Shown: piece after piece, positions 9,975 to 51,789 of the stretch
Layout of the letters: every line of letters begins with the position of its first letter
Position numbering within the stretch: the stretch's first letter is position 1
NCBI GenBank assembly: GCA_001724265.1
Contig: MEDY01000295.1
Location: 1 to 61,151, forward strand
Length of the DNA stretch: 61,151 bases
Direction: 5' to 3'
Source of the DNA: Rhizaria sp. SCN 62-66
Lineage: Eukaryota
Notes under the pieces: generated by a model
Told to the model about the DNA's origin: nothing
The model's input: the letters and a program-made list of their open reading frames with translations, nothing else
Database searches by the model: none
Program-made: the position numbers and the translations under genes

Positions 9975-10017
9975 GTTTTTCTCCCCCTGACCTTGTTTTT
10001 CTCCCCCTGACCTTGTT
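9975..10017. repeat. Perfect 20-nt tandem duplication
   Basis: (gtttttctccccctgacctt)x2 followed by gtt. Confidence 0.9.
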
Positions 10018-15377: not shown

Positions 15378-18300
15378 TTACTCTGGCAAATCGGGCTGAA
15401 GTGCGAGATCGAGGTCACGGCTCTCGCCAAGCATATGAGCGTGACCGACCTGTCTCCGGGCGTCCTCAATGAGCCACTGCGCCACGTCTTCCGTGCTCAA
15501 CTGGAGCGCGGCCGCAGAAGATGACAGAAGTCCGGTGCTGATATCGCGGCCCACATCGAGCGCGCCCGCGAGAGCAGCGCCGCGCTGCGCATTGGTCAGG
15601 ATCTCACTCGACTGCATATTATGCATCTCTTCGCTTGACTTGTCATGTCCGCCGCCGAATTGCAGCCCAGCATTAGCACTGTTGCCGCCGATGCTTTCGA
15701 GCGCGTGCTCACGGAGCATTTCAACAGATTTTGCGAGTGTTGACGCCGGTGCAGTGCTCGTTGGCGCGGTGACGAACATATTTAAGTCAGCGCTGCGTGC
15801 GGTGCGAGAGCGAGACTCTGATCCATCTGCTGAAGGCATATTAATTAGCTCATTATTGACGTTATTGTGATCGTTGACGTCAATAGTTGCGGCTCCATTG
15901 CGCTTTGTTTGTTCCGCGCGGCGACGCTCTCTCACCATGGCAATGCGCCATTCGCGAATCACAGGCTCCGCCTCCATCCCTTTGGCGTGCGCCTCACGGA
16001 GCGCATTGCGAAGTGGGACTAGCTTCGCCTCCTGCTTTTGTAGCACAATGAACGCAAGCACAACAGCGGTGATGAAGATGACGACCAGCATGCAGATCAA
16101 AACAGTGATGACAGTCTTAGCCGTTTCACTCACGGTGTCAACGAAAAGGAAATTAGCAAGGAAGAAAACCATGAAAGACATAAAAAGTGACAGTAACTCA
16201 GCAATTTCAGTTACTTTGTTTTCAAAGGGTTTCATGAAAATCTGCAGGAGAATCGAGAGGAAAATAAACAGCGACGCCAGTAAAAGCTGTGTGTGAAGCG
16301 CACCGGGGAAGAAAACAGCAATAGCAACCAGAATTGCTTTGCGTGCCATCTCATTGAGGAACCAATAGTAGCGCGTAGGTTTGTAGCCACGGTAGAGGAA
16401 GGCCATCTGCGACTCGAACACCTTCTTTTGATTCCGCATCACTGTTGAGGCGCCCTGCGAGGACATTATCACTAAGTCACGGTTGCGGAAAAGCACAAAC
16501 CAGGCAAAAAAGGGGATGTCCAGCACCCAGAGGATTAACATCGGCATCCCAAGTGTGACAATGAAAAAGATATGTTGAGAAGAATAACACTTTTCAAGCA
16601 TATTGCCCAATACAACATTTGCCGACGAATCGTCATCGCCGCCAACGTTCTTGCATGAAAGCATTGTGAAGAATTGGCGAGTTACGTTCGGGTGAATCAT
16701 AAACATAACAACAGTGATTGTGGTGATAATGTAGCCAGAGTACTAAGAAATAATGTTGTTGTACTGCGTCTCAGCAACATCCAGGCGAACGCGCATTTCA
16801 GACGCAGTCAGCTTTGGTGGCTCTGATTTGAGACGTTGTTCACGGGCCTTTTCAAACATTGCCTTCCCGTCCTTTTCGCCATAGTTGCCAACGTACCACT
16901 GTTGCTGTTGCTCCGCACGCACGCGTTGGAATGCGCGCTCACGGCGGAGAACGCGGTCCCTCAGAAGCTCGGCGTTGTACAACGAGTCAAACGGTAAAGT
17001 AGACAGAAGACGCATGTTCTCCAAGTCCTCGGCGCTCTGTACGACTCGCGCAAACTCAAATGTTGATGTCGCCTTGTTCTCAGCTTCCTTTGACTTCTTA
17101 GCATTAAACTCGGGTGTTTCGCGCACAATCATTGAGTACACCTCGACCTCACGAGCCACACGCTCATATATCGACTCGCGACTTTGGTGCATTAACGCAT
17201 ACGCACGTGAAAGAGCTGCCTCGCTCACTTGCGCTTCATCTATAAGAGTGCTGCGCAAAATAAATGCCGCATCATCGCACAGCACAGAGCTAAATAAGTT
17301 AGCAATGGCGCTGGGGTCGTCGTCGTGAGAGTTCTGAATCGTCGCGTCGTTGTTGACGGAAGAACCAGTTGGAGGGAAAGGGAGGCTTTGCTGGCGATAG
17401 GGGACGCCGCGCGTCTCCGGCAATGATTTTGTGCCAGAGACAGGCAATACAGCATCATGTTTCTCCTGCATGCCAGAAAGTGGTGGCGTAAGATTAATTG
17501 AGACTGCTGGTGCGTCACGATCACTAAAGCTTGTGTTGATGTAACTGTTGAGGTTATTCTCATCAACAAGGTCGTTATGCTCAAACACCACGATATCGGA
17601 GGTTTCATCAAGCTCATCAGCGGCTCTACGGTCAGGGTTGCTGTGAATCTTGCTCGAAGGGCCCCAAGTGCGGGTCGCAATCCCGGCTTGTTCAGAGCTT
17701 AAAACTGGTGTTACTGATGACGTGTTTGCACTCTGCTGGGTCATCATTACGTCGTAGTTAAACGGGTGCATTACATCAGCTTCAGACGCAGACTCAACCA
17801 CAGCTGAAGAGGAACACACGCGCATTGTCACTCCACGGCCCGGCAAAAGCGCGGACACTCGTTGAAACGGCGAGCGGTTATCATTACTCACATCAGAAGC
17901 GATTCTCATAATGCCGAACAATGCGGAAGTTGTGGGTGAGTCGCCTGAGTGCGGACAATTACCGGACTGTACAGTGTCTGTTGTCACTGCGCGCAGACCA
18001 CGCTCCTCAAGCAACGCATCACGCGTGCGCGCGGGAGATGCTGTTGTAGCTCGAAATCCCCGACAACCGTACGAGACCCTCATAGGTGACTCGTCCCGGT
18101 GGAAGGGGCCGCCAACTGGGGATCCAGGTGGAGGAGCAAAGATATGCTGTGCTGAGCCTCTGTTCACGCCTATCTGTTGCGCGACGCTTGCGCTTGAAAT
18201 GCGGGACACGCTATTGCTGCGACTGACGCTGGGTAAGCCTGTACGCCGACGGTGCAACGGGGTACGAGGAGCTCCATAGCCGGAAACTTGTGTTGAGAAC

Positions 18301-21300
18301 TCTGGTGTGGTTGGTGGGACAGGCGGGGCTAGAGGACCTGTCTCGTCAGGTAAGCTCACCGAAGGCTTTTTTGAGCTTTTTCGCATAAGCTGGCGACGCT
18401 TTCCAACGGTTTTGCGTGCGTTTATTATATGCACACCTGCGCTCTCTTTGGTACTCAGGTCGATACCTGTGTGGACGCTGTTAGTAAACCCAGTGGGCCG
18501 ATTGCGTGCTGTCAAAGCATCAGAAAGCAATCCCATGTCATGTGTATCATCAACGTTATCCCAGACACCGGAAGTAACGTAATCCTTGCTGCGCTCAGCC
18601 GCGGCCACTTGGTCTTGTGCTTTCATGACGCGGTCGCGTTGACGAGCGTAGCTCTCGAATTCGGTCACGATCTCCGCCATCAGATGGCGTTGTTCAGCCA
18701 TCTCAGCAAGAACATGCATCTTGTATCGACGCTTTGTGATGTAGTAGCGTGGCATGAAGAAAATAAACGGTAAGATAATGCCCATGACAGGAAGCACCAT
18801 GATACCGATTGATGTCACCCAAAACGAGTTGATCGATGGGTTATCTCCCAGGAAACAATCGAGGGACACCAATGCAGTACCGACGCCAGCGGCTGAGTCC
18901 GCTCCGGAAAATAGACCATTAAGGAAGCCCGGCCATCGGAGATCATACTTATTTGCAATTGCCATGACTTGAAGACCGGACACAGCAACCTTAAATAACA
19001 GTGGCACTGCAGGCGCAGGAAGCTCGTTCATTGACTGACGACCGTCGACAATTTGTTTCCATGCAAGAACAGCACACCCAACAATTGCGGCAAGCGTGCT
19101 CGCAACAATAATAAACCAGGCAAGAGCAGGTTCATTACAGCGACCACACTTAAACACCGAGGTCTTTCCGTAACCTGGCGAGCAGACGGTGCAGAGCGGA
19201 CCGCTGTGGCCTTCAATACAGGCGTTGCCACCAACGCACGTTGAGTCTAAGCACGTTTGGAACGATAGAACAGCGTGCCGTTTGTAGTTTGCATCGATTA
19301 TAGGTGCTTTTATATATACCTGCTCTGCCAATAGAATGCTTTTCTGAGCGTTATAGTCCGAAATGGCATCATCAGCAAGCTCCTGTGCTGATGGATCACT
19401 TTCGATTATCGAGGGATTCACGTCTACCATGACGTAGAATGTCCGCAATTTATCTTCGATGGTTTCGCTTGCCTTAGTGCCAACGTTTGCTCCCTCTAAA
19501 ACGCTGTCTGGCAGTATGTCGAGAACTGAAGCAAACACAAACCGGCTCCGTGGGCGTGAGTTGGAGTCAAAGATTGCCTTGATAACAAGGCTTTGCGCGG
19601 TACGACTGACATCGACGCGGGAAGTGTTATACGCAATGCTGATTGGGAAATAAACTCGTACGACATTGGGTGGATTGAGGTATGTTATTGAAGGCGCGTA
19701 CGATAAAATAGAAAGAATGTTATAGACTGAAACGCCGGGCATTGAGCAATCTCCACCGAGCATGCATGGCTGACACACACCCATGATGTCACGATATGAG
19801 CCGGCTTTGCATTGACAAAACGAATAGTCGCTCGTGTGCTCGGCGCCGAGCGGACAAGTCTCACACTGAGCGCTGCCTTCGTGCTCAGCAAACGTGCCTG
19901 GGGCGCACTGAAGGCAGCCTTCGGCTCGTTTCTGAGAAAACGTCCCACGCGGACAACGCGGACAGCTGGACTGGCCTAAACCGGAATACGTGCCAACAGG
20001 ACAATCTGAGCATGCTGTTGCTCCATATTGGTCAGTGAAAGTACCTGGCTGGCACTGGCGGCACAGCGCCTGAGACCAGATATCGTTGTAGTAACCAGGC
20101 TCACATGGCACACATTTGACATCGCTGTTATGTTGACCAGGTGGACACTGGACGTATGACAACAACACAGTCTCTTTTGAAAGCTCACCATAACGCTGCA
20201 ATACTGTAACAGGGCGGTCAATTGTAGCGTCTGCAGGTGTTGTGCACATGAGCTCGCGGTGGGGATTAGAATCTGTGTGAACGACTTGAGAGCACGTTAG
20301 TCCGCCAATTGAAACGGCTGCACCAAAGGCACCAAAGTTGTCACCAAGTAGCAGAATTCGATCACCACCATCGCGATTGCACTCGCGGATTGACTTTATC
20401 GAGTTTTTCTGGCAGCCTCTGATTTCTGTGATTGAAGGAGCAGCATAGTTAACTCGGCCGCGTGACTCGACGCGCTGTGAACCAGCCTTAACAATCAATG
20501 ATAACCCAGAGCCGGAGCCAGCAGGGAGCTTGCACGTAAGCTTGAGGTTGCTCTCGCGCAATAGTGACAAACACTGGCGGCCACCAACCATAACTTGAAG
20601 CGGATCCAGAAAGCCCGAGCCAGTGACTGTGAGGCGGATATCCCCACCATCGGTCGGGCAGTCAGAGGTGATACCGCTCAGGAAATTGTCGATTCCACAA
20701 CCGAACACTGACGATACAAGAGGCACTTGCGGGTACGAGTACATATCTGTTGAATAAGCTGCGCGGTGCGCGATGATTAGTTTAAACTTTAGATCGATCT
20801 CGTTCACGCCGTCTTTGGTGTGACAGATAATGGTTCGTTGATTCGGACTATTTGTGAGAGATAACTCTTGATTAAAGATGCACTCATGTGGATAATCTTC
20901 AGTGTTACTTCCTGCGCTGTACATCATTCGCACTAGCCCGGCGCGCTCAACAAACAGATTATCGATATCAAAGCCAATGTCCTCACCAAGACTTGTAAGA
21001 CTGACGTAGTCATTTGTGCGCTGCCCGATCCCAGTAGATGTGACGGCGTGCAGTGATGATGGAACAAATGCGTGTAGAGGATAGGAAATGCGGACATTGT
21101 AGTTGGAGCCGAGAGTTGCAAGCTCTGCCAAAGCTGAGGTGCCGTCCCAAGCCCAATTCCAGCGGGAGCAATCAACGTCGCCTGCGTTGTTTGCAACAGC
21201 ATCCGGCTGGATACAGTACTGCATGCGCACGTAAAGATCAGCACCTTGACCGGCACTCAAGGTACATTGCACCTGAAGGTACTTCAGTTTCTCTTGATTA

Positions 21301-24300
21301 AGGACGGGCATCACTAGAATATCCGTACATTCATATGTAACAATTGCCGCGTTAGAGTATAGCGTGGCGTTTGTGTTAAGATATTGAACGCGGGCAACGT
21401 ACGGCGCAACAACGTTAACACCGGCGTTCAATGTAAACTTAACGGTCTGGCTTCCATGGGAATGGTTTGGAATAAGCTCATGTGTTTCCACGTTAAAGTT
21501 CACGACACCATCTGACCAGGGAACCGACATGGGGACAATATCAAGAGTGATTTGTGGCGTGCAGACGTAAGAACCGAACGTGTTGATGCAACGCGAGTGA
21601 GAGCCATACACCGCGGCGCAGTCGACAAAGTACTTACCATTGAGCTTGTCTGGGTCACACTCGTCAATGTCGATGCATGCCGGTACCGCTGGCAGCCACT
21701 GAGACGCCTCCGTGCATGTACGCTCATAGCGATCACTGCCTCCTGCAAACGTGAAGCCAGGCATGCATCGGTACACTGCAATAGACTGATAGCGTGTGGG
21801 GCCAGCAACAATGAGGTCGTCGTATTTAAACTCAATCTCCTTGCTGTACGGGACTATGCCGTCCTTGTCAGGGCGCTTGCAGTCAATCGCGCCACACATC
21901 GGCCCAACTGCAGGAAGCCAACCGTCGGCAAGTGATCCGCATCGTCGTTTGGCTGAGGTCACGGTGTCCGTCAGCGGATCCCGCGGCTCGTAACCCGGTT
22001 TGCACACATACGTTGCCGTAGTGCCATACGAACGCGCAATAACCCCGTTGTTACCCGTGCCTAGCGTGTCCTCAAAGACGATATTTGCTCCGTTTATCGG
22101 TACCTGGAGCGATTCACACTGATGAACGTCACATGCCGGCAGCGTCAGCGGGACCCAACCAAGCGGCGTACATTCGCGGCGCGCAGCCAGCACTGGAGTA
22201 CTTTGTTGAATAAACTGGACCACATAGCCCGTGCCATCGGTCAGGTTATAACCCGAGTAACGCAAATTGTAGCCAGCGTTGCAGCGGTACTCTACTAAAG
22301 ACGTGTTGAGATACATACCCAAGCTGCCATGCGTACCGTTATTGGCAACGGATACTTGCGCAAATGGAATACTTCCTGGAGCGCCACAGTTGTATGGAGA
22401 GCAGGTGCGAAGTGGTCCTGACCAGTTGCCAGTTGCTGTGCAGATGATCTGGCTATCGGTGTGACTCATTACAGCACCGTATTCACACGAGAATGTTGCA
22501 GTAACGCCGTACATGTTCATTAGAGAAGACGGGGCTTGCACCACGGCGCCAAAAGCGACCGTTGAGAGCGTAGGGCACGGTTGTGGTACACAACGCGGGG
22601 AATCAATCGGCTCCCAACCTTCGGACAAAACGCACTTGCGCGTTGTATATGCCAAGTCCCTTTCCCACATATAACCCTCGGCGCACGCGTAACTGGCAAT
22701 GGTATCGACCGGATATGTGTTGGATCCAGAATCGTACGTGACATTGCTGCCATATCGCGTAAATACAATCGGTTTCATTGTTGTTGGCTCGTGATAGATC
22801 CGCACGCACGTGTTGGAGCGGCAAATTGCCGCGGTTCCAGACCAAGTTTGATTGGCTTGGCAGACACGTTTTTCGTCTCCATCAGTCCTAACATAAAGCT
22901 CAAGACACTCCTGAGTAGCGATAGATTGGAACTTACGTGCACCGTATGGTAGCGTCGAGTAAGTAATGTTGCCAACATTGTTTGTTGTTAACAAAACAGG
23001 GCATTCAATCGGGACGCATGCAGGTGCTGTAGGGGAGCTCCAACCACCAGCAGAACATGTGATTTCTTGAGACCCCGCAAGGACAAAACCATCGATGCAG
23101 CCATATGTGTAACGAGCCCCGAACGAAGTTGCATTGCCTTCGGGTGCAATCTCCGTTTGTTTCGGCGTAGTGCCAAAAGTCGGGTACCTTTGCGGCACAG
23201 GGCCGCAGTTAAACACCTCACATGTGGGAGCTTGTGCGGACCACCCAGTGGCAAGACACGTCATGCTTTGAGTACACGTCGTCACCGGTGGGTTTGTTGC
23301 GGGGTTGACAGTGCATGTCCTGCTCGCGTTGCTTGGAGAAATCAAGGTATATCCTGAGTTGCAGCTCACTGAGGCTTCTGCCTTGTAGAACGTGAGACCA
23401 AATCCGTTGTCTTGGTATGTCACAGAACCACGGATAATGGTTCCCAGAGTTTGGCAGTCAATGAGCGTCACGCGAATTGGCTCCGACGTGAAAGACATGA
23501 AGGTTATACCCAAGAGACGTGTGACCACAACGCGAGGCAACACAGCATCATCGACTAAACCAAGATCACTGCGGTGTGTAAACGTCATGCACTTGAACCA
23601 AAAGTCAAAGCTTGTCGCATAAGCTGCAGTCAGCTCAAGCTTGCCTCCAGAAAGACTCACCCACGTACTGTTATCGGGTTTGCCGCCCGTGATAGTATTC
23701 AACGGGGCACCAAAGCAGTTGGTAAAGCTTGAATCAACCGTAATTGCGACGCGAACAAAACGACCAACGCCATTAACAGCGTCCATGGGAAGGAACGACA
23801 TTGTTATCAGCTTCGGTTCTTGAGCGTGAATTGCTTCTGGCAACGTAGAAGTGGTAAACCGGTTCTCAACGGCAAATGGAACAGTGGTAAACTGGCTAAA
23901 GTACGTTGTGGCGCTACTGATAATGGTTAGTTTAACGGATGGATTTGCGCGGACGCAGTACAAAGCAAGGTCAACTTCAGAGACACTAGAGGCAACGGAG
24001 AAGAGGAGGCTATCACTGAACAGGATAGGGTCAGTGACGTTAGTAGTTGCGAGCTTGCAGTCATCGCTGCTTGATGATGTGATATCAAACACAGCCGTGT
24101 GCGTCGGTGCAGGCATCAAGCGCACACGCAAGTTGTGAATCAATTGAACAGCAACGCGTTTAAGCGTTGTCGGCGTCGCAAGAGGTGGGAAAGCGACTGT
24201 GCGAAGGGCCTTTGAATCCTCAATCCAGACTGCACCGCGGACGCGGAAGGGCGCGCTGCGAAACACGTCGTACCAAGTGTCTTTGCTGTTGGTAATAAGT

Positions 24301-27300
24301 ATCACGGCAGGATTCAGCTCTGTCTCAACTGAGCAACTCATAGCAATGTCAATTGCCAGCGTTGTGGCGTTGAATGTAAATTCAAATGCACCATACGTTA
24401 AATTCTCAAACGCAACAGTGTCAGCAAGAAGGCGGAATGCACATGTGGGCTGTGGACCGACCAGAGAGTCAGCCAGAACATCAACAAAAAGCGTAGTACT
24501 TTCGGCGGCGTACGGCGCAAGGGCAACTGTAAACACCCAGTCGCGGTTGGCCACAATCTCACCTGTAAAGGCTAGATTTGATTCAACCTGCTCTGTCGAA
24601 AATAAGATCGATCCGCGCACGTGCAGCGGCAGTGATAGTACAGGGAGGTGAACGTTACCTGAGGTTACTTCAGCCAGTAACATCACTGTCGATGCTGTTG
24701 TGTAGCTGCACGATGGATAAATTGTAGAAACGGCGTCTCCAAGGACAAACAGAACGTTAACAGTGGATGAAAATGTGGGAACACCTGTGTCAGAGTAGAT
24801 CATGAAACCACACATGCCAATCATGCTGGTAAAGCTTATACGGACTGTTGTCATTGACAAAACGGCAGGAATCATACGTAAGCGTACGCTTGTTACGTTG
24901 GTGTTCGGTGTGCGCATGTAGTAGGGACTTAACAGAGCTGCACTGCCAGACGGTGCAACAAGGAGCTCAAAATTGTCGCGAGAGTCTAAATCTGTGATCT
25001 CCCGATCAGCACCAAAATTTGTAGCGGGCATTACATAGTCAAAGGCCATGAGGCCGTAGACGGGCACGGGGCCAATTGCTGAACCCTTGTAGGCGTTGCT
25101 ACTGATAGTGATGTGTGAGCCGACGCTATGTGTGCGGCGGCACATCATGTTGGCAGTGAAGCTCTCAATAGTATTGATCTGCACAAACACTGGTTCGCGT
25201 GTGTATAATCCAGTACCGCGCAGCTGGAACACGCAGTCTGCAGGAGTCGTGAGCTGTGATATCATTACAGTCTGTGTTGCCGTTGGCGTCGGAGCAAACT
25301 GAGCTACCACGGTGTAGATTTGGCCAACGACAAAGCTGGTGTGCGCTTCAATCGGTTGGTTGTTAATAGTAAACACTAGGTCGCCCTTTGTCTGCAGCGC
25401 TGCTGACTTGACGTCTTGGTAGTAAACACCTGAGCCTGTGGCAAACTGGGCAATAACTTGTGGTGGCTCGAAGGCAGGAGAGTTGCATTTGATATTGACC
25501 GTGTAACTGGCAGTGGTTGCAGTTATTACAGCTGAGCCTGACTCATCGTTGAATTCCAAAAAAATACATTCCGCAGTCGGATTACTAAAAGAGAGCTCCA
25601 AAACAGCAGCTGTCGGTAGTGCAGGGGAAAAGGCAAAGTGCAGCGGCGTCACATCGGAAAGGGGGAACTCGACAATCAACTCTGGGTCAGTAAGAACAAG
25701 AGGACCTTCAGCCGTAATTGCAGTGAGCGAAATCCGGCCTATCAAACGGAGCCGCTGCACGCGCCACGTTGCGTTTCCAAGAGTTGTCCGTGTCTTAAGG
25801 ATCTCCGAGAACCGCATTTGAGAGCACGCAAAGATAAACGTCAGATATCCGGTTGCAGCGTCCGTCGTGACGACCTCATGTGTGATGTTTGTCTTCGCTG
25901 CGTCTCCTCCAAAAAAGCATGGACCAATATCCGAGTAGTCCAGAGTCACAGTTGCGTTGACCGTTCGGACTGCAGGGAAAGTCCACTCAAGTCGAAGCGT
26001 GACTGGAAGTGAGTCAAAAAAATACTTGTACGGCGCCGGTTCGTCGAAAGCGGCACCTGTAAGCACATTAGGTCCGCGCTCTGGATCGTAGACGTGTGCT
26101 CGAGGCTGTAGCGCGACACGGAATGTGTCCGGATGCGTCACCAGTCGAGGTGGGTACAGGAACGACTCTGCATAACGCGAGGCCGTGATATCAATCGGAC
26201 CATCTGCAATAGCTGCCGAAGAGCACATAAACAGAACAGTGTGACGTTCATCAGCCAAGAGGCTAAATCGGTATATAATCGACTCTAAAAGAAGACCATC
26301 AGTGAGGGCATTTGTAAAAGCGACTTCAGTCCGGATGGTGTCGATTTCCATAAGATTATATGCATAACCAAACGCACAACCAGAGCCCGCGGTGTGCTGA
26401 AAGAGATTTGTGGTATAACGTTCGATTTGGGCAGAGATAGAAACTTCAACGTAGATTGGCGTAAACACTGGGATCGTATTAAAGCTTAAAGCAATAGGAG
26501 AGTATGCGCTCACAAGCCGTAACGACGACGAAACCCAAGCCACTATGGGATTGTCAATAATGTTGTAAGATCCGTCGTTTGCCGGATACGAAAGCAGAAG
26601 CGCAACATTCTCGCTTGGTGCAATTGACTCGGTACAGACCATGAAAATGTCGAACAGTGTCAGAAGAAAGCGTGCAAGGCACAACCAACGGCAATAAGTT
26701 GCGCGTAAGCTCAACGGTAACGGGTCGAGCAGATGCAAATGTTGGTTGCGCAGCAATTGTGACCATACGCGTTTGTGGAGCACCTGTAATTTCAAACTCA
26801 AACGGAACCGGCATCGCCGGTGTTGCAAAAATGTTGCCAGTAATAATGCGCGCAGGTAATTGAACATCGACAAAACCTTGATCAACTGAAACTGCAAGCA
26901 TGGGAACTAAGCTTGTGTTCGTGGGGGTTGTGCAAGACATTCGCGCAATTAGGATCGAGTTACCTTCAATACGCGCCGCGTCTGCAGGCAGCGTAATTGG
27001 AACCGCGAGAGTTGCGACGGCAGCGCCAGTGTGTCCTACAGCGCCAACGTACGTGCAGCCAGCCAGTGAATGAGAGACTGACAGCGTGACAGCAGTTGAG
27101 TCTAGCAGAGGAACATCAAAGTGCAGCGTAATGTCAACATCGGTGCCGGCAGGATAAGCAGCTGGCGCAGAGTCAACAATCGCACCAACGCGAATCGTGG
27201 CCAATAGCGTAAATGTTGGCCGGACGTGCAGCGGACCGGGAAGCAAAAATTTGTCGTCAGATGTGTGCCCCAGAGCAAGCGATCCCACCCATGAGGTAAG

Positions 27301-33300: not shown

Positions 33301-36300
33301 TGTGAGTTGTACTGCATATGTAGCCGTTGGAACATCCCACTCTCCAAAGCGCTGGTGAGTGTAAGCAGCAAGTCCTGTGTTTTGCAAAACGCGGAGCGTT
33401 GTCAGGAACGGAAAAAAAATGACACTACGGCCCGAAGGTCACCTCGATTAAGGCCTCACTCAGGAGTTCATTTGGCACAGTATCAAGAGTAGTTTCCAGC
33501 GTCAAGTACGAGCGCCCAGAAGCAGAGTGCAGTGTCGGAACTAATGTGGGCGCCACAACCATTGTTGCTGAACTCATCACTTGGAGTTCCGCAAAGTGTC
33601 TATAGCGGACAAGACTGTTTGGTGACACAATATCAAGCGTATACACTTCACCCGCCCGATAGCTTGCGGGAGCAGGAAACGTAATTACAAGCACCGCACT
33701 GACAGATTGCAAGCAGTAGTATTGCGATGGACTCGCTAGAGTCAGCTTGAGTGAGCGCAATGGGCTCAATGGAACCATCGTCAACGTGAGAGTATTCGTC
33801 CCCCCCGCAGTAAGCGGCACAGTCATCTTAATCGCGGCAGCGCTGAATGCAGCGAGCACGGCACCAGTTTGCATCGAAGGGGGAAATGTCAACACCATAT
33901 ACTCATCAGAATTAATCATCACATTGCCACCAGCGCACATGTCCGTTGGCGCAATGAGCGTGTGAACCAGATCTGTGGTTGTTGCAGCATTAAAGTATGA
34001 AGAAATGCTCCCGCGGATCACGTCAAAGCGCCCAGTATACAGCTGTTGACTTTTGTCGTTCAAGATCGTCATCTCAACCTCAGCGCGTTCAGATGTCGAG
34101 GTGCCAATTTCAGTGTTCTCAATAGTGAGCGTCAACAGATCGCCTGAGAGTGTACCACAAGAAAAAATAGGACAATTGATAGCGCGTAGCACGTCGGGTA
34201 GCGAGCTCTCGGTCGCAATGCAGACAAGGTCACAGCGATTTGACGACGAGTCTGTCAACGATGCCTCCACAGTCATTGTGGGCGGCGTCGTTGCGACAAA
34301 ACGTACCGTGGCAGATGCGCCTTGAAGCTTAATTTCTAGTCTCTGTGTTGCTGAGACTGCTGGGCTCCAATATGGTACGTTAATCACAGCGCGCAGCGGA
34401 CCATAGTTCTTTTCAGGTGTGAGTGAATGTGTCACGTCCGTTATTGAAGTTGGGTACGCACCAGCGGCAAAAGCTGGAATTACAGCTATTGCGCGCAGAG
34501 CAGTACTGGACATTAGCCGCAGCTCGAGTTGCTGCTCAATAATAAGATGACTGCAAGAGACTGTAACGCGCAGAGTCGTTGAGCTTGTACCTGCTGCAAA
34601 GCACGAAGTCAGAGGAACATTAGCACCTGCAGTCAGAGGTTTGCACAGCAAACTTATAGGCGTCGGTAACAAACGTTGAACGCTCTCAAGCACAACGTCA
34701 ATGGGGGTGTTGTGTGGTAATGCGTCGCGCGTAACTAAGGCAAGCTCCATGTCGGCTGCGACGTCGTTGATCGAAGTCCAGGTCATGTCACAAGTAATCA
34801 TGTAGCGAGTAGTTCCAACCGAGTGGGTGCACGATGTTGCTACCGAGTGCGCGGGTGTGTCTGAGAGAATCATCTGTTTTGTGGCATACGCAAAGGCAGT
34901 TGTGACGGCTACGGCCACTGCGCCATAACCAATGTTCATAAGCTTATGTTCATAGAGAGTCATTGCGGCAGACGTTGTGCGACTTCCCATAAGCTCCGCA
35001 ATCACAACCAGGCGGTCAGATAGCGCAGAGACAGCTACTTGCTTCACATCTACAGTCACCTTCATATTGATCATGCTTGCGACATATGGAATGACGATTA
35101 CACCCGTTGCGCCAACGGCCACAGGCGCACTTGCAGAGCCGGTTTCCACAAGCACACTGTACTGTGCAGAGCCGTAGCTGATACCAGTTAAAGGCAGTGT
35201 TAGAACAAAGTTCATGTCAAGATGAGCCATTGCTGTTTGTGTCGAAAAGAGTACAATGCTTAGAGCCCTCTCGTTTGTTCCGGAAACTGCAAATAACGCA
35301 CTAAAAATACTTAGGGGCGGTGTCGGCGCTTGCTGGGGCTCAAGAGCATCGGGAAGCACAGCGATTGGCACAAGCGTGACAATTTGTGCTGGCTCAGTCA
35401 TTGTCCGCGAAAGAATTGTCAGAGACTGCATTGGGTTTGCAGGACCTGAAGTAAATCTGCGTTCAAGCGGGAAACGCAACACGCAACCAGCTGTGGACGA
35501 GCACGCAGGTACTGCAGCCGTGACTTCGGTGGTAACGGTGACCGCGAATGATGATGATGGAATCTTTATAGCAGTAAATCCTGCAGTGGTGAGAGGAATA
35601 TCCGCCGGGTAGTCGTAGAATGTAAAGTCTCCAGTAGTCGGAAGAACAAAGTCAAAGCTTGGCATTCCCGTATACCAGAACATGTCAAAGAACGTAACCT
35701 GCAGGTGAAATGGTGCCGCAGTAAATACGTCAGTAGTGCGAGTACGGTCTACAGTAGCCTGTAACGGTGGAGGCGCTCCAACAGGGTAGAGCGGGGCACC
35801 TGAGGTGGTTGAGGCCTCGAATATAAGTTGGACGATAATACAATCAGGCGCAACGTATGCCGGGGAGTCGAAAGTAACAAGCTTTGTGGGGTCAAGCTCT
35901 AAATGAGAAAAGCCAAACGCAATCGGATATGAGGGCTCAAACGGGCCATCAGTGCATGTAACTGTCAGGACTGTAGCTGTGACACTTGCAAGCAAACAGC
36001 CCGATGTACCGGGATGAAAGACCGAGTTCACAAAGCTCGACTTCGGTGACACAGGACAAGTCGTGCTCTTTGCGCTCAGAGTAACTTTCACATCAATTGT
36101 CACAGTTGGAATGACGTTTGTGAGCACAGCACGAATGTCAAGCCGTGCGCGGTGCTGCGTCGCTGTCGAGTCACGCGTTAGTGTGGCGCCGTACATAAAC
36201 ACATTAGGCGGTGGGATTGAGCCGAGCTTGACATCTTGCAGCGGATGGTATGTTGTGACTGGTGCTTCGGTGCTAGTTAAGTTGAAGCAACTCTTGGGTA

Positions 36301-39300
36301 TAGTAAGTGTATCCTTAAAGGCGCTTTCATTTACATGCTCAAGAAAGTAAGCGTCAGCTATCCTAAATCCAATGTACTTGGGTTGAGGCGTTGGCATACA
36401 CGATGCGGGGACAGACATTGTGGTGAAACCGCCACTATACCGAGTGGTGCAAGTGCCACTGTCTTGATTGAGCAGATTGACTGGCAGGCCGCTGGTGTAG
36501 ACACCGCAGTCAGAGCCCAGCGAGAGTGTAAACTCGGCAACCGGCGATCGAAGTGGGAATACAAAAATGTGCAACGCTGTTGTCAGGTCTGTCATCGCCC
36601 AAGAGTGCGCGGCTAAAACTATGTGATACGCAAAGGGCAGCACACTTGTCGACAACGGGTTTGTCAGTGGCTGATCGAGGAATGCATTTGCAACTTCTGT
36701 AATAAGTCCGCCAAACATGTAGCTGGTATCAAGGGTAAACGTGAAGTCTGTGGTAGCAAAGGCGTTGAACTCATAAGGAACACTGAACTTGGCCAAAAAC
36801 GAAGTGAAGCAACGTTCTTCAAGAAGGCAGTCCGTTACTTTGCCAGAAACCGTGTTAGAGCATGTTTCTGAGATAGTTGGTGCATCAACCACCTGCGTTG
36901 ACAGAGCGTACGCATAGCTTGCAGTTAATAATAACACAGGGCGGAAGAAAAATATCTTGAAAAGATATGTCTGGTCTGTCATGGCCAACACAGTGGGAGG
37001 CTCTGTAGCGTTCGAAACTGTGGCTGAGGTAATTGTGGTGATTTGGTGAGAGATAACAACGGCTGGAGGGGAATTCTCAATTGTTTGCACATCCACATTA
37101 GTGTTCTGCTGCGGAATAACAACGGAAGCAACATTCATACCCGTCATGCCAGTTGACGCGGAGTAAGTCATGAACAGGTCGTTGTAATTAGCGTACGTGG
37201 TGCGCACGGGACCAAAGCGAATAACGCGCGGGACAAAGAAGAGATTGCCTGCACTCGTGACAGCGTCGCAACCACTTAAACAAAGCTCCGTCGCGCTGTT
37301 TGCCGTAACGGTGCAGGACAACGCTGTATATGAAGACATCGAAGGTTTGGTCACGATACCCGAGTTAAAGACAAGTGCTGGTGCAATCGTAGCCTGCGCA
37401 GTGAAGTTAATACCCCAGTCTGCTGAAAGCGCTTTATGCGGGAAGATAACAACTTCCCATGTGACGTCGATTGGAGCGGTTGCGTGCGTGGCCTCAGCTG
37501 GGTCCACAATGGATGCAAGGTTTGCGGTCACAGGATACCATGCAAAATCCAGGTCATGTGTAATGGCCTGATCGAGGGCAACTATAGATGTCCCGGCCTT
37601 AGCTAAAGTGCCGGTGGCGCTTGAAAAACCAAAACACTTTGCCGTGTCAAAAGGGTAATAGCTTGCTGCAGTCACATCGAATTCCACAAACGTCGCAGTG
37701 TAAGTGTTTGAGCGCTGACCTGCCGTAAAGCTAACTGCGCCTGTGCCAGCAGAAATTGTCAGGCCAGGGCAAACAGCGGTGAGAACAGAAGTGACAAAGT
37801 TGAATGCAACTGCTGTGGTGGGAGTTGTTGGATACGCGTAAAGGGCCAAAGACAACTTCAATAGCCGTGTAGCCATTGTCGCACCCTGGACAAGAACGCG
37901 GTCCGTTGAAGCCCAGTGATAGTAAAATGCAGGCGTTGACGTAATGCGCAGCACAATATTTGTCGCAAGCGCCGCACCAACAGTGGGGTTCGAAGGTGAG
38001 CGAAGAACAACAGCAGTTCGTAGCAAAACATACGGATCGTCGGCAACGACCCGCGATGCAGAATTGGCAAACGCTACAGTCATGCCTGTCACGGTGCACA
38101 TAAGCAGAGTTGACACACCCTGAGAAATTGTCTTAGTTGAGGTGAACAACAGCTGCGTTGGTGTTGGCGTTCCCGACACAACACAATCACCGGAAAGCGT
38201 CACCGCTGTAAAAATTAGTGAGTCTGAGATTGAAACTAACGAAAGCACGTCAGTAGTTGTCAGGGCTTCTGCACCTGTGATGGCAAACGTTCCTGAGACG
38301 GTTGTAATAACTTGCAGCGGATTCGATGCTGGCGTAATTGAAAATTCAGTCGCGGTGTACGTCACCTTGACGTACGGAATGTGGCCCAGTGAAACATCAT
38401 ACAAAGGATAGGTACTAGTCGGTGTGGCAGTGACAAGGCTAAAACAAGACGCGCTAAGAGTCTCGTTTGAGTAAAACGGCGAGTCTTCGGCATCGCTAAG
38501 AAAGTAGCCCGTGTCAATCTTGTAGGCCAAGTACTTTGGTTGCGGGGTTGGCATGCAACTTGTTGCCACTGAGACTGACGTGATCGTGGTTGGAGCGCAC
38601 GCGCCTTCAAGATTCTGATATGTCACCATCTTTCCAGTACCCTGATAAATGCCACAGTCACTGCGCACTTGAATTGTGCTTGTGTCGACAGATGTTGTAA
38701 GCGGAAAGATGTACAGTTGCAAAGTTGCTGTGAGATCTGTCCCAACCCAGACCCGATTTGTCAGACGCCACACCCAGTGTGTCCGTCGTAAATGCGTTGA
38801 CAGTCGCACTGCTGGCACCGCCAAGAGAGTACGTGTAAGTCATGGTAAAGACAAAGTTTTCCTTGTCGTATGAGGTTTTCTCGTAGGAGACAGTAAATGT
38901 GGAGCTAAACGAGACAGACATTTTAACAGTTCCTGACGCTTGGCACGTCACACTTCCGGCAACTAGAGTGGGGCATGTACCATTCGTTGTTGGCGTCCCC
39001 ACGTGAGCTGCCGAAGCACTGTACGAGTAACCAATCGTCGATGTTGTGATGGCTTTGAAGAAAAAAACCTTGAAAAAATAATTCTGGTTCGTGATCGCGG
39101 TCACCGTGGGTGTTGTTGTTGTCGGATCCTCAACGTTAGCCGAGACAACATCTTTTGTCCACAGCATTGGAACAATGTTTGGCAGAGACTGCTCGGCAAA
39201 AATACTGCCATCGGTCACGGCAGTATTTTGCTGCACAATACCAGCCTTTATGCTGTGCGTAGCAAGTACACCAGGATCTGCCGCATAAGACTGAAACACA

Positions 39301-42300
39301 GTCATGTAGTCGGCGTATGTGGTCTTAGTTGCGCTGAAGCGCAGGACACGTGGAGTAAATTTACCGCTGCCGTCATTATCAATACTACTACAATCAGAAA
39401 ACTGTAGCAACACTGTACTTATCGGCGTAATCGTGCACGACAGCGAAGAATACTTAGTCGTAAGTGGCGACTTTGCGACTAGGCCTGGCGCAAACACGAG
39501 CGTTTCTGCCATTGCTGCTAGGGTTGAAATGTTAAAAGACCAGCTAAACAACGCCATGTGAGCGTAAACCACAACTTCCCAGTCAACGTCAACCGGGGCT
39601 GTGGCATGTTCCGGATCACGCGGGTTCACACTGCTTGCAAGCTGTGCAACCACAGGGTAAATGACAAAGTCAAAGGGATATGTTGTTGAAACGTACGAAA
39701 TGTCGATAGCGCCAGCGCGGGCAATGGCACCTGTGTTTGAGCTTACAGTGAGACACGTGTTTGTGATAATGGGATAGTAGTCAAACGTATCTGCGTCAAA
39801 CCTAAAGCTGAGGACTGTCGATCCACTTGTAACGCGGTACAACGTCGCTGAACTGGTTGCCATACTGTTAGAGCCGCCTGATAATGTGAGTCCCGGGCAT
39901 ACGCTCGAATCAAGTGCAACGGTGTAGTCAAACGTGACGGATGATGGTGTCGACATATACATGTAAAAACGCGTCTGAATCTCAATTTGCCGCGTTGATA
40001 AAGTCGCACCACGTACTATCGAACGAGATATGGCCCCGATGTGCCAGAAGTATGGAATAGCATCAGTCGGGCGCGCAACAATGTTTGCGATGGAAGGCAA
40101 GCCCGCTGAGTTGACAGGTGTGCGCAACAAAAGAGCATTAGGCAGCAAGACATATGGATCTTCATCCGTTACACGTGCGGCGGCGTTATTGTGTGCAATC
40201 TGTAGGTTGGTGAACACACAGAATATTGAGGCAGATGAATTAGCTGTGAAGCTTTCGGTCAATGTAAAGCTAACCGCAGTGCTTGTAGGTGTGCCACTAA
40301 TAACGCACTGCCCGGAGATTGTCACACCAGATAGATCAAAACAGGATGCAATTCCGGAGGCCAGTGTGAGGACTGCACCAGCCGCGAAGGTCTCACCGCG
40401 GACAATCGCAATTGTTGCTGTAATCAGTGTTATTGTTTGTGTGAAGTCTAAAGCAACGGGACTAATTGCAAAAGCAGTTGTTGTAAACGTGTAGGGCGTT
40501 TGAGCAGGTCCAATGGCAATATCATGTAAGGCTGTAACTGTTACTGCCATGGTGTCTGTTAGAGTGAAACACGATTGTGGCACTAGTTGATTTGATGCGT
40601 ATAACGTCGAATATACGTTGTTTAATTTGTACGCCGCAGCAAGCTGGAAACCAATAAATTTGGGCTGATCAGGCATGCACGCTGCGGGCATTGACATCGC
40701 AGTAAAACCGCCACTGTAGCGACTCACGCATGTGCCATTAGTCTGACTATTAATCAAAGCAACCGGTTGGCCGGAAACAAAAGCACCACAGCCACTTTGT
40801 ACAACGAAATTATAAGGGATAAACACATTTGTGTGGGGGAATAGATAAAGATGGATCTTTGCCGTCAAATCCACTCCCGTCCATGTGATATCAGTCAACA
40901 CAGTCGTAAACTAAAAGGGGAGACTTGACGTAATGGGCGCGCCAAGAGATGATCCTGCAAACGCTGGCATTGTTAAGGAGTCGTTTCCAGCAGTCACATA
41001 AGTAAGGTCGACTGTAAAGCTAAACTCGTTGTCTGAAAACGACGTTTTCTCGTAGGGAACTGTGTACTCACCAGTATAGAATGAGAAAAACATTGCGGGC
41101 GTTAGTATAGACGAGCACGTAATGCTGCCCATTGCGTAGCCGGAGCAGGCACCTGTCAAACCTGTCGAGCTCGTGGTGACCATGCCCGACGATGCGCTGT
41201 AGCTGTAGACGACAGTTGCAGCTGAGATGCGTTTAAAGAAAAACAAACGGACAAAGTAGTTTTGTCTCGATGAGCCCGTGACCGTTGGTGTGAGTGTGAC
41301 GGCATCCGCAACGGTCGCAGTCGTGATTTTGTCGAGTAAAGCGCAGCCACTGCGCTTGGTTTGGAGATCGTGGCATCGATTGTGTCATCAGACATATCGG
41401 TGTTTTGCTGCGATGCACTGACGCCAGAGGCTGTCGTGACAGCGCCTTCAGATACGTTGTACGTCTTGAACAAGGAGAGGTAGTTCGCGTACGTGGAAGT
41501 CACAGGACCAAACCGGAACACACGTGGTGCATAGTAGTTACTAGAGCCGCTGACATTACTACAGTCACTCGCAGAGACCGCAGCTGCGGTGCTATACGTG
41601 ACCGTACAGTCAATCTGTGTCAGCCCAGAGCTGGCGGTAAATAACGATGTCGGAGTCGCAGTCGTGCTCGACGCAAATGCGCTACGGGAAGCAAGGTCAC
41701 CCTGCAATGTGAGTGTGAATCCCCAACCGGCAGCAAGCGTTTTATGTGCGTAAACAATGACTTCGTACTCTAGGTCAACAAAAGCTGCTCCATGTGTCAT
41801 GCCGCTTAAATTGATGCCAGATTGTAGAGTCGCACGCACAGGATAGAACAAAAAATCAAAGTGACGTGAGTACTCTGACACTGGCTGCACTGCACCAATA
41901 GCCCGTGTAATCGACCCCATACTAAAGCAAGACAAGTCTAATAAGTAACGCGCCGTGTTTGTGACATCAAATGTAATCGAGAAAGTTGTGTCTTGTGTGA
42001 CGCGAAAATCGCCCGTTGGCGTAACGGAGTTCGAAGGTGTCACAATTAAAATGTCAGAACATGACGATATGACTGTGTACGAGATGACCGCCGAGTTCGG
42101 GTTGGTGGCGTACAAATATACGCGCAACCCGACATTGATTGCACGCGTAGCTGACAGCACAGAGCCTCGGACGAGGGAGCGGTCGCTTGGCGACATGTGC
42201 CACCAGTAGGCTGCCGTATTAATGGCACGGATGACAATGTTGGCAGATGCGGAAACGCCAGTTGTAATTGCCGGCGACGTAAGAATTAACGCGTCTTTGT

Positions 42301-44755
42301 TGATTATATACGGGTCGTTTGCCGACACGCGCGAGTCCGTATTGGCAAAAACAACGCGCAGATTGGCAACGGAACAATAGATTATGCTTCCGACATTTGC
42401 GGAAGCTGTTAATTTAATTGTTAACTTGTCACTTACTTGTGTTGCAATAGCACACGTGCCGCCTGAAACTGTGGCAGACGAAAAGTCAAAGGATGTAAGC
42501 GCCACAGTGAAAGCAAGCAGCGAGCCTGAGGAAAGAGCTTGACCAGTCATGATTGCAAATGTTCCAGCAAACGTTGAAACAACTTGGGCATAGTTTGTTG
42601 CTTCTGGAGTAAGAACTAGCGAGCTTGGAGTGTAAGTGTACGATAGTGTGTGCATGTTGGCAATAATGGGATCTGCCAGTGATGTTGCAACAGTGGTAGG
42701 CGTTCCCGTGGTTGATCGTGTTGTCAGATAAATCATCAGGCAATATCCTGGAATAGCTGGTTCCTTATTGTCCATTGGCGCCTGTACATTAGTAATGCTG
42801 AGCTGAATCCCACCTGCAGCACTTATAGATGCACCGACGTTGCATTGAAAAATAAAACGCGTTGTGTCAGCTGAAACTGTGGTGCACCCTGTGTTTGCAA
42901 TTGTCGACTCTGGCGAGAAGAAGACCGGAGAGTCTGAACAGAAGCGTATCACACCACGCATGCCACCACCGTTGTTAAAAAACACCTCGAGCCCGGTATT
43001 GTACCACGTTGAGAATGATGTCGTATACAAGTTGTTCGAGCCTGAAGTGCCCGTGAGTACTAGGCCCACAACTTCGAGCTGAAGCTGAGCAGGCGTATAG
43101 ATGCGGGTTGAAGCGTAGTAGTTACCACATCCAAAGTAGTCCCAGTAACTCGCATTCATATACGTAAAGCATGTTGCTGGGCGCGCCGCTACCTTCAGAT
43201 CTGATGACGAGAATGTTGAGAGTGTGTCGTTAGTGGTCGCTAGAAAGCGCAGCGTAAGGCTGTTTGCAATATCATGTTGATAGAATGGATAACCAAGATC
43301 AAGCATGAAAACATAGTCAGTGTTTGATTTCTTCTATTTAAGTGATATAGACTGAATTGGCGCTTCGTTGGACTCAATAAGTGGTTCTGAAAATGGGAGG
43401 TAGGGATGACCTGGAGTGATGTAAGTGAGTGAGTCAATAATGGCGCCGGACGAGGTTGAAATCTCAATATCAAAATCGCACTGATTTGTGTAAGTAAACG
43501 TATAAATCGCGTCTGCGTGCGCAGCTTTAATTGACGCCAATGAACGTTCTATAATATTGCGTATGTTAACTTCTAGAATAAACGACGTTTCTAGGGGGGA
43601 CCCCACGCTTAAGATTGCTACAGAAAGCTGGTATGGGTCATGTACTGCCACTGAAGTGTTGACTGTCATTTTTGTTCCCCCGATTGAGTACTGTGCGGCA
43701 AGTAGCCTGTAAAGCGTGATGAAATTTGAGTCAAAAGTTGATCCGCTTTTTGAAACAGATGCCGTCGGGCCATAACCGGATCCTACAGTTGATGTCCACA
43801 TCTTTTGCGTGAGCGCTAAAGTGCTGGAACATCCAGACACGACTAAGCCCGACGGCAAGCAGGGGGTGTAGCTGCAATTCTTAAATGCGGTTGCAGTGCT
43901 ACATGGCGAATCTACAAATGCATTGTTCTGAGGGAAGAGTGTCAAGTACGTCGAGAGTGTAAACGACGAGCAGCCTGTACACGACAGAGATATGAGTGTC
44001 TATGAGGCAAAGAGAAAGCTAGCATCTAACACGCCCTCCTAACTTTCATACCTTACCTCTGACACAACCCTGACTCCATGAACAGTACCACCTGCTGCAG
44101 CCTGCGTCGCAAACAAATGATCTTGTTGCTGTTGCGGTAGTGCTGTGGGGAAGAACGTGTTGGAACTTGGGTTAGCTAAAAGGTAGTCAGCATTCTTATA
44201 AATGCCTTGAATTCTTTTAAAGTTACTGAGGAGACCTTCATGTTGTTGTAGGTGTTTTTGTGCGTGCAGCAACGCGAAGCGTTCGTCACGAGCGGCAGCG
44301 ATGCGCTCGGCTTGGAGAGCGACGACCTGCTCCTGAGTCTCGAGCGGCGTGCCGGGGGTAAGCGGCGGCGGAAGTCCGTCAAGTGGCTCGCCAAGCTCGG
44401 CCCCAAGGGCACGCCAAAGGCCCGGGGGCAAGTGTGCCGGGTTCTGGAGCAAGAGGCTGTGCAGCGTCACATTCTTGATGTTGAGGCGATCGACGAATGT
44501 CTTGTACAGAATGGTGCGTGGCAACGAGTTTAGGTTGAACGGGAAAGAGCTGGGGAGTGCTGAAACAGGAAAGTTGGCTTTAGGAGAGTACTAAGAGGCG
44601 TCAACGCTGCTCTGCTATTGTGCCTGCTCTGAGTTGGCATAGCCCGCTAGAGAGACTGAAGTTGCAGAGCCTGAAGGAGCACAAAACATCACCATGAAGA
44701 ATGCCAACATGGCGAGCGCGATGAACGCGTCTCTGATACCCCATCTCCCAAACAT
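15378..44755 (-). CDS. Giant (~9,800 codon) multi-pass surface or receptor-like protein; up to 8 in-frame TAGs and 4 frame breaks
   Basis: ATG at 44755 (upstream in-frame TAA at 44816-44818) followed by a signal peptide. Successive ORFs join in frame through TAG at 44615, 44591, 44039, 44000, 43334, 40911, 33425 and 16743. Frame changes near 41330, 38765, 33415 and 26655. Domain order is coherent and the gene ends with TAA at 15378-15380. It may be a damaged allele or carry assembly errors. Confidence 0.78.
16040..19125 (-). other. Multi-pass membrane module (~9 hydrophobic helices) split by a ~660-aa low-complexity loop
   Basis: Preceded by C..GH.GPLC.VC..GY; contains FKVAVSGLQV...WP, SLDC, HP.VT..FF..LSC, FLYRGYK...YYW.....RK and KPF. 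This pattern is typical of protist Cys-rich TRP-like transmembrane proteins. Confidence 0.75.
19740..20730 (-). other. Two IPT/TIG-like domains followed by TNFR/ephrin-receptor-like Cys-rich repeats
   Basis: CPTDGGDIRLTVTGSGF...VGGRQC...LTCKLPAGSG and a second similar unit; then repeated C..C.PG.(F/Y) units. Confidence 0.75.
21556..23460 (-). other. Eight Sushi/CCP modules plus one calcium-binding EGF domain
   Basis: Eight repeats of C...Y.C..G(Y/F)...C....W....P.C, then DIDEC...C...CINTFGSYVC. Confidence 0.85.
36210..42650 (-). repeat. Three tandem, diverged ~715-aa (~2.15 kb) protein modules
   Basis: Motifs recur at that period: DPY(I/V)..; PRV(F/L/I)RF...TYA(N/D)Y; QQNT; (I/L/V)FFF; V(P/S)YE; CMP..QPK(Y/F). 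Confidence 0.85.
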
Positions 44756-45540: not shown

Positions 45541-45635
45541 GTAAGTGGCTGCGAGATTGAATTATTTTTTTTAAGTGCATGATTTATATATGTTTCGCTT
45601 TTATTACTTTGTGAAATTGTTATTGTGTTTCACAG
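45541..45635 (+). other. Possible 95-nt intron in a 5' leader or small upstream ORF
   Basis: GTAAGT...T-rich...TTTCACAG, clearly more AT-rich than its flanks; no long ORF around it. Confidence 0.4.
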
Positions 45636-51371: not shown

Positions 51372-51789
51372 CACTTGGCGCGCAAGAGAGGGCGTTGTAG
51401 GCGCCAGAGGAGACTGGGAGGGGACTCGGGGAGCGCTGGCCTCGGGGTCACCACTTCAGAACGGGTCCTAAGACTTTGAAAGAGGAGCAGATTAAAAAGA
51501 GATAGATGAGTGGCTGGCGACCGCCAAGTAAAGGATACTTTTAGGAGCACAGTTTAGTTATGTTTTTGTTATTAGCACCTTATTAATATTTATAGTATCG
51601 GAAACCCCATCGATATATTTGAAATTTCGTTTTAACTCACCACCCGTTTCCCGACCTTGCTCTGCCCCACACCACACAAGTTATTTTCTTTCTCCCGGCC
51701 CTTCCAGTCCCTCTACTTGGGACTTTCTCCTCCACACTTCGCTTTCAGGGGTTGCAAGGCGTTCCCTCAGCGGCCGCGGCTGCAGCCCG

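Follow-up and report, generated by a model that had tools for sequence, protein, structure and literature searches.

The giant gene, its homologues and its joins

We analysed a window of 61,151 nucleotides (nt), the whole stretch of DNA taken from contig MEDY01000295.1 of the Rhizaria sp. SCN 62-66 assembly (GCA_001724265.1), in which a single giant gene occupies 15378..44755 on the minus strand, from an ATG at 44755-44753 to a TAA at 15380-15378. All features of this gene described below lie on the same strand. An earlier reading made from the letters alone (hereafter, the sequence-only reading) had placed a hidden receptor-like protein of about 1 MDa in this interval, and its coordinates are exact: 44755 is the A of the ATG that opens a signal-peptide-like stretch, and the terminal TAA ends at 15378. 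The window copy holds 9,771 in-frame codons and the intact haplotype 9,798, and the conceptual product has a mass of about 1,049 kDa (~1.05 MDa). GC content is 60-75 % in the window, the exception being 14-46 kb at about 50 %. The gene itself has about 50 % GC (third-position GC, GC3, of 0.51) versus a GC3 of 0.67-0.79 in neighbouring genes, and the GC fraction of orthologues from other samples is 0.49-0.64. Three studies contribute four runs, from bioreactors or wastewater, in which 0.96-0.98 of the sampled words of the window sequence are present.

Under the standard code, this strand breaks into nine stop-to-stop blocks (A-I, of 183, 221, 725, 157, 750, 1804, 2294, 3387 and 454 amino acids (aa)), close to the ten or so fragments counted before. 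The sequence-only reading had these fragments forming one unit once UAG is taken as sense. Readthrough of TAG is indeed needed, but by itself it turns the nine blocks into five open reading frames (ORFs), not one, and four frameshift corrections and the removal of one intron are needed as well. The only internal stops among the 9,771 window codons are six TAGs.

The proposal of a single, almost intron-free gene holds, since every block boundary is bridged by homologues or by contigs of other runs. A search for homologues and paralogues had been suggested as a check on it, and a scan of metagenome contigs returned 21 loci that bridge boundaries together with database orthologues. The orthologue P0012 spans the boundaries A/B and B/C, and P0013 spans C/D and D/E. 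Boundary E/F is closed by 35 nt present in the contigs of three other runs (X2, X3 and X4), while F/G is spanned by P0024, G/H by loci L001 and L005, and H/I by 19 loci. With locus L001, a single high-scoring segment pair covers 3,787 aa at 70 % identity and contains no stop, and uninterrupted frames of more than 11 kb, all of which extend past the available sequence, are observed in L004, L005, L007/L008, L014/L015, L016 and L018. Several paralogue groups occur per metagenome in the collection (JGI metagenome contigs). We find no synteny between the flanks of the loci and the window, and the only Pfam families in the flanking genes of the loci are Cation_efflux, His_Phos_1 and Sugar_tr. A search of the window and the loci found no Rfam family.

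The sole intron (44000..44056) is 57 nt long and in frame; its donor is GTAAGG, its acceptor CATAG, and a polypyrimidine tract lies between them. The reading path crosses eight TAGs, of which those at 44041 and 44002 sit inside this intron, and at this site P0012 carries an extra 21 aa or so, inserted in frame and encoded by AT-rich codons. The remaining joins, which we call J1-J4, are changes of frame. At J1, a run of four A (41327..41330) is one base short relative to P0013 (-1), and because the sister modules and P0013 are colinear across the site, the change is one missing base rather than an intron. A 44-nt GT..AG intron that would mend the frame at J1 was rejected on this colinearity and on its poor donor and pyrimidine tract. 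J1 is present in every assembly examined (the window, X2, X3 and X4), and since the database protein that carries its out-of-frame tail (P0011) is recorded on 7 contigs, those contigs should have J1 too.

The other three joins differ among assemblies. At J2 (38764/38765), the window lacks 35 nt (-35) that are carried by the X2, X3 and X4 contigs and that, translated by hand, close the frame and restore the motif found at the other module boundaries. J3 is a run of eight T on the minus strand (33412..33419; +1), of which the X2 contig has seven; the seven-T version keeps the frame through the TAG at 33427 into the next block, and P0024 is colinear there. J4 (26654..26666; -41) is a 41-nt deletion relative to the X2 contig, made up of 28 nt and one copy of a 13-nt direct repeat, and the residues missing from the window are encoded by L001 and L005. 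X3 and X4 have J3 and J4 in common with the window, but not J2. From the contigs of other runs and the orthologues, J2-J4 are indels of the window haplotype or of its assembly. X3 and X4 yield the same tables and may represent a single data set deposited twice. Contig joints with sides of 30 nt or less were left out of interpretation.

P0025 and P0012, database proteins of relatives, end in out-of-frame-looking tails inside modules, and frameshifts or unrecognised introns may be common in assemblies of this gene family. A 33-nt stretch at 44365-44397 also occurs in other X2 and X5 contigs (X5 being a poly(A) metatranscriptome) with flanks unlike the window on both sides, and may be a short dispersed repeat.

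In-frame UAG codons

Across three genes of the window (the giant gene and two neighbours; 13,005 codons), the in-frame stops are 10 TAG, 0 TAA and 0 TGA. Under random nonsense mutation, ten TAGs out of ten have P = 2.8e-4, a value that rests on one-step mutational target shares of 0.41, 0.46 and 0.60. The complete large genes, few in number, end in TAA (three) or TGA (two) and never in TAG (0/5). Within the compared stretch, five TAGs are identical in X2 and X3/X4.

The six TAGs of the giant gene were placed against its homologues where possible. TAG 1 (44615..44617) lies in a Gln-rich context just past the signal peptide; X2 and X3/X4 have it as well, no homologue extends over it, and an in-frame intron candidate of 66 nt, a weak one, may also account for it. 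TAG 2 (44591..44593) lies in the same 12-nt word as TAG 6. TAG 3 (43334..43336) corresponds to Gln in P0012 and Val in the distant P0020, TAG 4 (40911..40913) to Glu in the closest orthologue P0013 and to A/A/S/N/G in the paralogous modules, and TAG 5 (33425..33427) to Gln in P0024 and Glu in the distant P0016. TAG 6 (16743..16745), which directly precedes the helix that opens the second half of the membrane core, stands in a conserved Glu column, with Glu in 18/19 loci (GAG in 17, GAA in 1) and Asp in 1, several of these loci being near-duplicates; Glu is also found in 6/6 database proteins that cover the site. The four alignable TAGs (16745, 40913, 43336 and 33427) thus face Glu or Gln in the closest homologues, and since these alignments are gap-free and colinear, the four are not intron ends.

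Summed BLOSUM62 scores are far higher for Glu (8.5) and Gln (6.6) than for all other residues, and the two tie when the closest homologues alone are used. Leu, the meaning of UAG in the rhizarian exLh, does not fit these sums. The alignments therefore support a reading in which UAG would be sense, for Glu or Gln, with UAA and UGA as the terminators.

Flanking genes at two of the homologous loci also contain TAGs. In the gene that adjoins the L001 orthologue (L001:13781-16180), which encodes a B-box-like Cys/His motif and a coiled coil, there are three in-frame TAGs past an intron-like acceptor at 13787, one of them within the weak B-box match (15.6 bits, cut-off 24.1). The cation-efflux gene of L018, a distant relative, has an intron (L018:16359-16500, minus strand; in frame, GTAAGT...CTCTAG) that mimics TAG readthrough; it shows that the group does have short canonical introns.

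Two of the ten TAGs share their surroundings. A 12-nt word found in the window at 44585-44596 and 16737-16748 (minus strand), and at no other place, contains one of them at each site; when one mismatch is tolerated, the expected number of matches is 0.10, and two are reached in 1/100 shuffles. Over 30 bases around 16745, the closest orthologue shows exactly two differences, in the TAG and the adjacent codon.

Architecture of the conceptual product

The receptor-like build that had been proposed is apparent, with a huge ectodomain followed by a multi-pass membrane module. The product begins with a signal-peptide-like N-terminus of 31 aa (44663..44755), recognised by eye from its basic start, hydrophobic core and small residues at the end. 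For the first 7,300 aa or so, Pfam gives nothing, and the composition is 12.6 % T, 10.4 % A, 10.2 % S, 8.8 % L and 8.4 % V. The description of this part as some 7,000 aa of Thr/Ser/Val-rich beta-type modules needs modest revision: it would be a beta-sandwich chain of about 7,300 aa, and it is rich in Thr, Ala, Ser, Leu and Val.

The N-terminal portion of this stalk contains a family-specific module, about 720 aa long, in 3.2 tandem copies (36197..43069), with 30-37 % identity between copies. The number of modules varies among relatives, and in P0013 the first module leads almost directly into the unique region. Segment-wise modelling and structure search had been recommended for this protein, and it was informative for the 720-aa module and poor for the membrane core. 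The AlphaFold2 (AF2) model of one module, made from a 13-row alignment, has a mean predicted local distance difference test (pLDDT) score of 68.5, with residues 136-700 mostly at 70-94, and the module is predicted to be a chain of Ig-like beta-sandwich domains, that is, a general stalk fold rather than a sign of homology. Foldseek returned integrin alpha chains at E values of 1e-8 and weaker, with template-modelling (TM) scores of 0.13-0.16, and adhesins at 7e-6 and weaker. VIA-align gave Z scores of 8-9.7 to FnBPA, SdrD, ClfA and SpaD (MSCRAMM adhesins and pilins), where the background is 7-8. The module would therefore resemble integrin alpha legs and adhesins (MSCRAMMs, pilins, AgI/II and Als) as a modelled string of Ig-like beta-sandwiches, but the low TM scores, an identity of 6-12 % and Z scores near background point to a shared fold only. 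The stalk continues as a non-repetitive Thr/Ala/Ser-rich ectodomain of about 4,200 aa (23457..36196) without a Pfam family, in which BLAST shows no internal repeats. Two propeller-like stretches within it found no relatives in PDB sequence searches, and atlas leads from this unique ectodomain to beta-propeller families are low-scoring only (0.78). Tandem Repeats Finder reports nothing inside the gene.

Recognisable modules are gathered between the stalk and the membrane. Eight Sushi/CCP repeats (21675..23456) match PF00084 with 103 bits for the whole block (cut-off 20.7), as 5 + 3 stretches in two overlapping 400-aa tiles and, by eye, as eight units of four Cys and one Trp; an HRM match that overlaps one of them is sub-threshold (16.1 vs 26.2 bits). 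They are followed by an acidic, Cys-containing motif (21555..21671; residues 1746-1784 of block H) that looks cbEGF-like by eye, two IPT/TIG domains (20157..20678; PF01833, 35.5 and 47.5 bits, cut-off 20.9) and three stretches of ephrin-receptor-like (GCC2/GCC3-type) Cys-rich repeats (19737..20150; PF07699, 43.9-50.2 bits, cut-off 23.1). A DUF7630-like Cys knot (19137..19247; PF24633, 17-21 bits, which does not reach the cut-off of 27) lies just ahead of the membrane core, with 4 residues between its end and the first helix, and has matches in 7/14 family members. The domain list of the sequence-only reading is thus recovered for the signal peptide, the eight Sushi repeats, IPT/TIG, the Cys repeats and the multi-pass module, while its cbEGF is seen by eye only, Pfam having given no EGF family at E <= 0.1.

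The membrane core is split. Its first three helices (18753..19124) are recognised by hydropathy and are conserved in relatives. They are followed by a putative cytosolic insert of about 650 aa (16746..18689), largely disordered except for a conserved helical domain that takes up roughly its last 190 aa, by six further helices (16047..16742), placed by hydropathy and with weak similarity to PF06011 (TRP), and by a putative cytosolic C-terminal tail of about 220 aa (15381..16046) that is poorly conserved. The hydropathy scan gives seven non-overlapping hydrophobic stretches, to which reading adds about two more, for 9-10 helices. In the AF2 model of the core region, pLDDT is 25-35 over the insert loop and 83-93 for model residues 710-850. 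Using this poor model, VIA-align finds generic helical bundles only (Z <= 10), and a PDB sequence search with the membrane core returned nothing relevant.

PF06011 is the only Pfam match of the core; it covers the last six helices (E 1.3e-5, profile positions 185-399 of 426) and is found at E <= 0.01 in 8/14 relatives, with a best value of 1.4e-6. This family, named TRP, includes fungal Flc/Pkd2-type multi-pass proteins, whose fungal members have an N-terminal ML-like TRP_N domain before the helices. The weak likeness of the giant protein to the family lies in those six helices; it differs in that no TRP_N/ML-like domain was found by Pfam in any block or tile. As to an adhesion GPCR, whose seven-helix core goes with a GAIN/HRM region, Pfam reported no 7TM family in the blocks or the core and only the sub-threshold HRM match given above. 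In the atlas, the closest clusters consist of PF06011 proteins from green algae, haptophytes and ciliates, and in one atlas cluster, Ephrin_rec_like is present in 78 % and PF06011 in 12 % of the members. The domain combination, which had not been recognised when only the letters were read, therefore has a partial precedent in this cluster, and another in the CRMP proteins considered below.

Interpretation, known systems and neighbouring genes

We propose that the interval would be one nuclear gene of a GC-rich, intron-poor microbial eukaryote from wastewater and bioreactor metagenomes. Its intact form would run in a single frame for about 9,800 codons, interrupted by the 57-nt intron alone, and encode a membrane protein of about 1.05 MDa that would consist of a signal peptide, a lineage-specific beta-sandwich stalk of some 7,300 aa, Sushi, cbEGF-like, IPT/TIG and Cys modules, and a core of 9-10 helices with a 650-aa insert. 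The copy in the window is a damaged allele, or a partly misassembled one, of a real giant gene, one that functions in the lineage; it may have been disabled recently, or part of the damage may be assembly error. The whole of this reading, namely one giant receptor gene, UAG read as Glu or Gln, a damaged copy and a role as a contact sensor, is in our judgement probable, with considerable room for doubt.

A number of results weigh against it. The evidence for the code amounts to ten codons, and the TAG at 16745 replaces a Glu conserved in 18/19 loci, as a nonsense mutation would. In relatives, the homologous C-terminal part, some 3,700 codons in each (about 3,770 in L001), is free of TAG. The L018 TAG join, tried as a case of readthrough, was rejected, as its in-frame TAG ends a GTAAGT...TAG intron. 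No tRNA(CUA) was found, in a window and 18 loci that contain no tRNA gene at all. With J1 as sequenced, translation ends 57 codons downstream, and the gene may be dead in this species. Between haplotypes there are seven substitutions in 20 kb (3 synonymous, 4 nonsynonymous) in addition to three frameshifting indels; the polymorphic frameshifts and the 4:3 ratio of nonsynonymous to synonymous changes suggest relaxed constraint or low-depth assembly errors, the compared contigs having a depth of 4-8. Because X3 and X4 are likely duplicates, independent support comes from two populations, not three. The PF06011 match stays below its cut-off of 28.5 bits (24.7 for the last block, 23.9 for the whole core), and the AF2 model of the membrane core is poor (pLDDT 52). 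On the supporting side, transcription is weakly indicated by 9 contigs of X5 with at least 99 % identity to the gene, on both sides of J1, with zero contigs in 44676-45999 (the 1.3 kb upstream of the start); these RNA contigs are short and cover no TAG, no junction and not the intron.

Several of these points would be expected of a decaying pseudogene, in which the TAGs and frameshifts are all disabling and the code has not changed. J1 is found in all assemblies, the three further indels are polymorphic, a conserved Glu is replaced by TAG, and nonsynonymous differences between haplotypes outnumber synonymous ones. We nevertheless regard decay as unlikely, because ten of ten stops are TAG (at the P value given above), four of them in two neighbouring genes without a frameshift that stay open for 456 and 1,715 codons past their last TAG, and because an in-frame TAG also occurs in another gene of the closest relative, L001. 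Furthermore, the X2 haplotype continues for about 8,650 codons past J1 without TAA or TGA, so any inactivation is recent, or J1 is bypassed. A bypass is the substance of another alternative, in which the gene is intact, tRNA-Lys slips by -1 on the A run of J1, and J2-J4 are artefacts of assembly or of minor alleles. By hand reading, such slippage would yield exactly the orthologue-like junction; a stem starts 5-8 nt downstream, the frame beyond J1 stays open, X2, X3 and X4 lack J2, and X2 also lacks J3 and J4. A classical frameshift site is an X_XXY_YYZ heptamer, and the J1 site is not one. The downstream fold is no better than that of shuffled sequences (z -1.59; 13/200 shuffles fold as well), P0013 needs no shift, and J3 and J4 are common to the window and X3/X4, so that we hold slippage to be quite unlikely.

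The two other alternatives we find much harder to sustain. If the in-frame TAGs marked where short in-frame introns end, the pair within the 57-nt intron (44041 and 44002), the intron-terminal TAG of L018 and the pyrimidine-rich stretches that precede several TAGs would all be accounted for, but the flanks of 16745, 40913, 43336 and 33427 leave no room for an intron in their gap-free alignments to homologues, and the GTs at a suitable in-frame distance include no consensus donor; this explanation is very improbable. It would be slightly more surprising still if the interval held several independent head-to-tail genes. Public databases do list the standard-code blocks as separate proteins (P0001, P0011, P0014 and P0023), but homologues are continuous over every boundary, there is just one signal peptide and one terminal membrane module, and the blocks abut or overlap with no intergenic space.

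On the preferred reading of one giant receptor gene in a damaged copy, the long stalk, hundreds of nm if extended, would hold binding modules far from the cell, while the Sushi, TIG and Cys-repeat binding modules would sit next to the membrane, and contact or a mechanical pull would be passed to the multi-pass core and the conserved cytosolic helical domain. The protein may have a role in adhesion, prey capture or mechanosensing, as had been suggested from the sequence alone. By analogy, the protein is likely a contact or adhesion sensor comparable to the CRMPs. Possibly it is a mechanosensitive channel, the sole hint of channel activity being the weak PF06011 link.

In the relevant parts of PMC9815656 and PMC9670195, CRMPs combine Cys-rich repeats with a multi-pass core (with nine helices in Toxoplasma and Plasmodium and a predicted five in Tetrahymena) and are proposed to sense a target and trigger exocytosis. 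Judged by those parts, the likeness lies in a large modular ectodomain, in adhesion-type and Cys-rich (EGF-like, ephrin-receptor-like) repeats right before a multi-pass core and, putatively, in a cytosolic C-terminus, and some CRMP members also have long N-terminal internal repeats. Correspondingly, the Ephrin_rec_like stretches and the DUF7630-like knot of the giant protein lie directly N-terminal to its membrane core. The giant protein differs in being several-fold larger and in having Sushi and IPT/TIG domains and the 650-aa insert within the core. The resemblance to the CRMPs of apicomplexans and ciliates is one of architecture, with no sequences compared, and nothing shows the host to be an alveolate.

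Codes in which UAG alone has become sense have precedents in what PMC5304391 and PMC11687900 report in part: UAG is Gln in Iotanema spirale, Leu in the rhizarian exLh, and Leu or Gln in some phyllopharyngean ciliates. As far as those portions go, the present case is alike in that only UAG appears in frame, UAA and UGA terminate, and UAG is rare. A combination of UAG=Glu with UAA as a stop is not named in those portions of PMC5304391 or PMC11687900, and the literature was not searched for that combination. From its GC content of 50-75 % and contigs of up to 190 kb, the host is unlikely to be a ciliate. A more specific conjunction, in which a non-ciliate lineage of wastewater eukaryotes reads UAG as Glu with UAA and UGA still as stops, a family of megadalton contact receptors from ~30-kb single-exon genes links, through its membrane core, the protist Ephrin_rec_like and PF06011 proteins to CRMP-type exocytosis triggers, and -1 slippage at the A run keeps the gene functional in this species, seems to us rather unlikely as a whole.

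The gene family with its ~7,000-aa ectodomain is new, while precedents exist for the membrane module and for this kind of code change. If the proposed reading is true, it would add another eukaryotic lineage with UAG-only reassignment, one missed by standard gene callers, and a new family of extremely large surface receptors, with about 7,000 aa of ectodomain outside described families. It would also provide a free-living counterpart of the CRMP-type contact sensors, whose mechanism in parasites is open. As the window copy is broken, it should not be read uncritically as encoding an expressed protein of 1 MDa.

The other genes of the window are also large. On the minus strand, a gene of 1,368 codons (47268..51374) has TAGs at 51047, 50858 and 48641 in Gln-rich contexts and ends in TAA; it has a signal-peptide-like start, low complexity and no Pfam family. 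A second minus-strand gene, of 1,866 codons (254..5854), has one in-frame TAG (5404), ends in TAA and is likewise of low complexity without a Pfam family. The region 6000-10700 has a lower GC content (54 %) and overlapping ORFs of 270-440 aa on both strands without a Pfam family. Three intron-free ORFs without TAG lie on the plus strand: two have no Pfam domain (51619-56946, 1,776 aa; 57256-61149, more than 1,298 aa), and the third (10767-14060, 1,098 aa) carries a Metallophos domain, its sole clear database relative (E 5.6e-109) being a metagenome protein.

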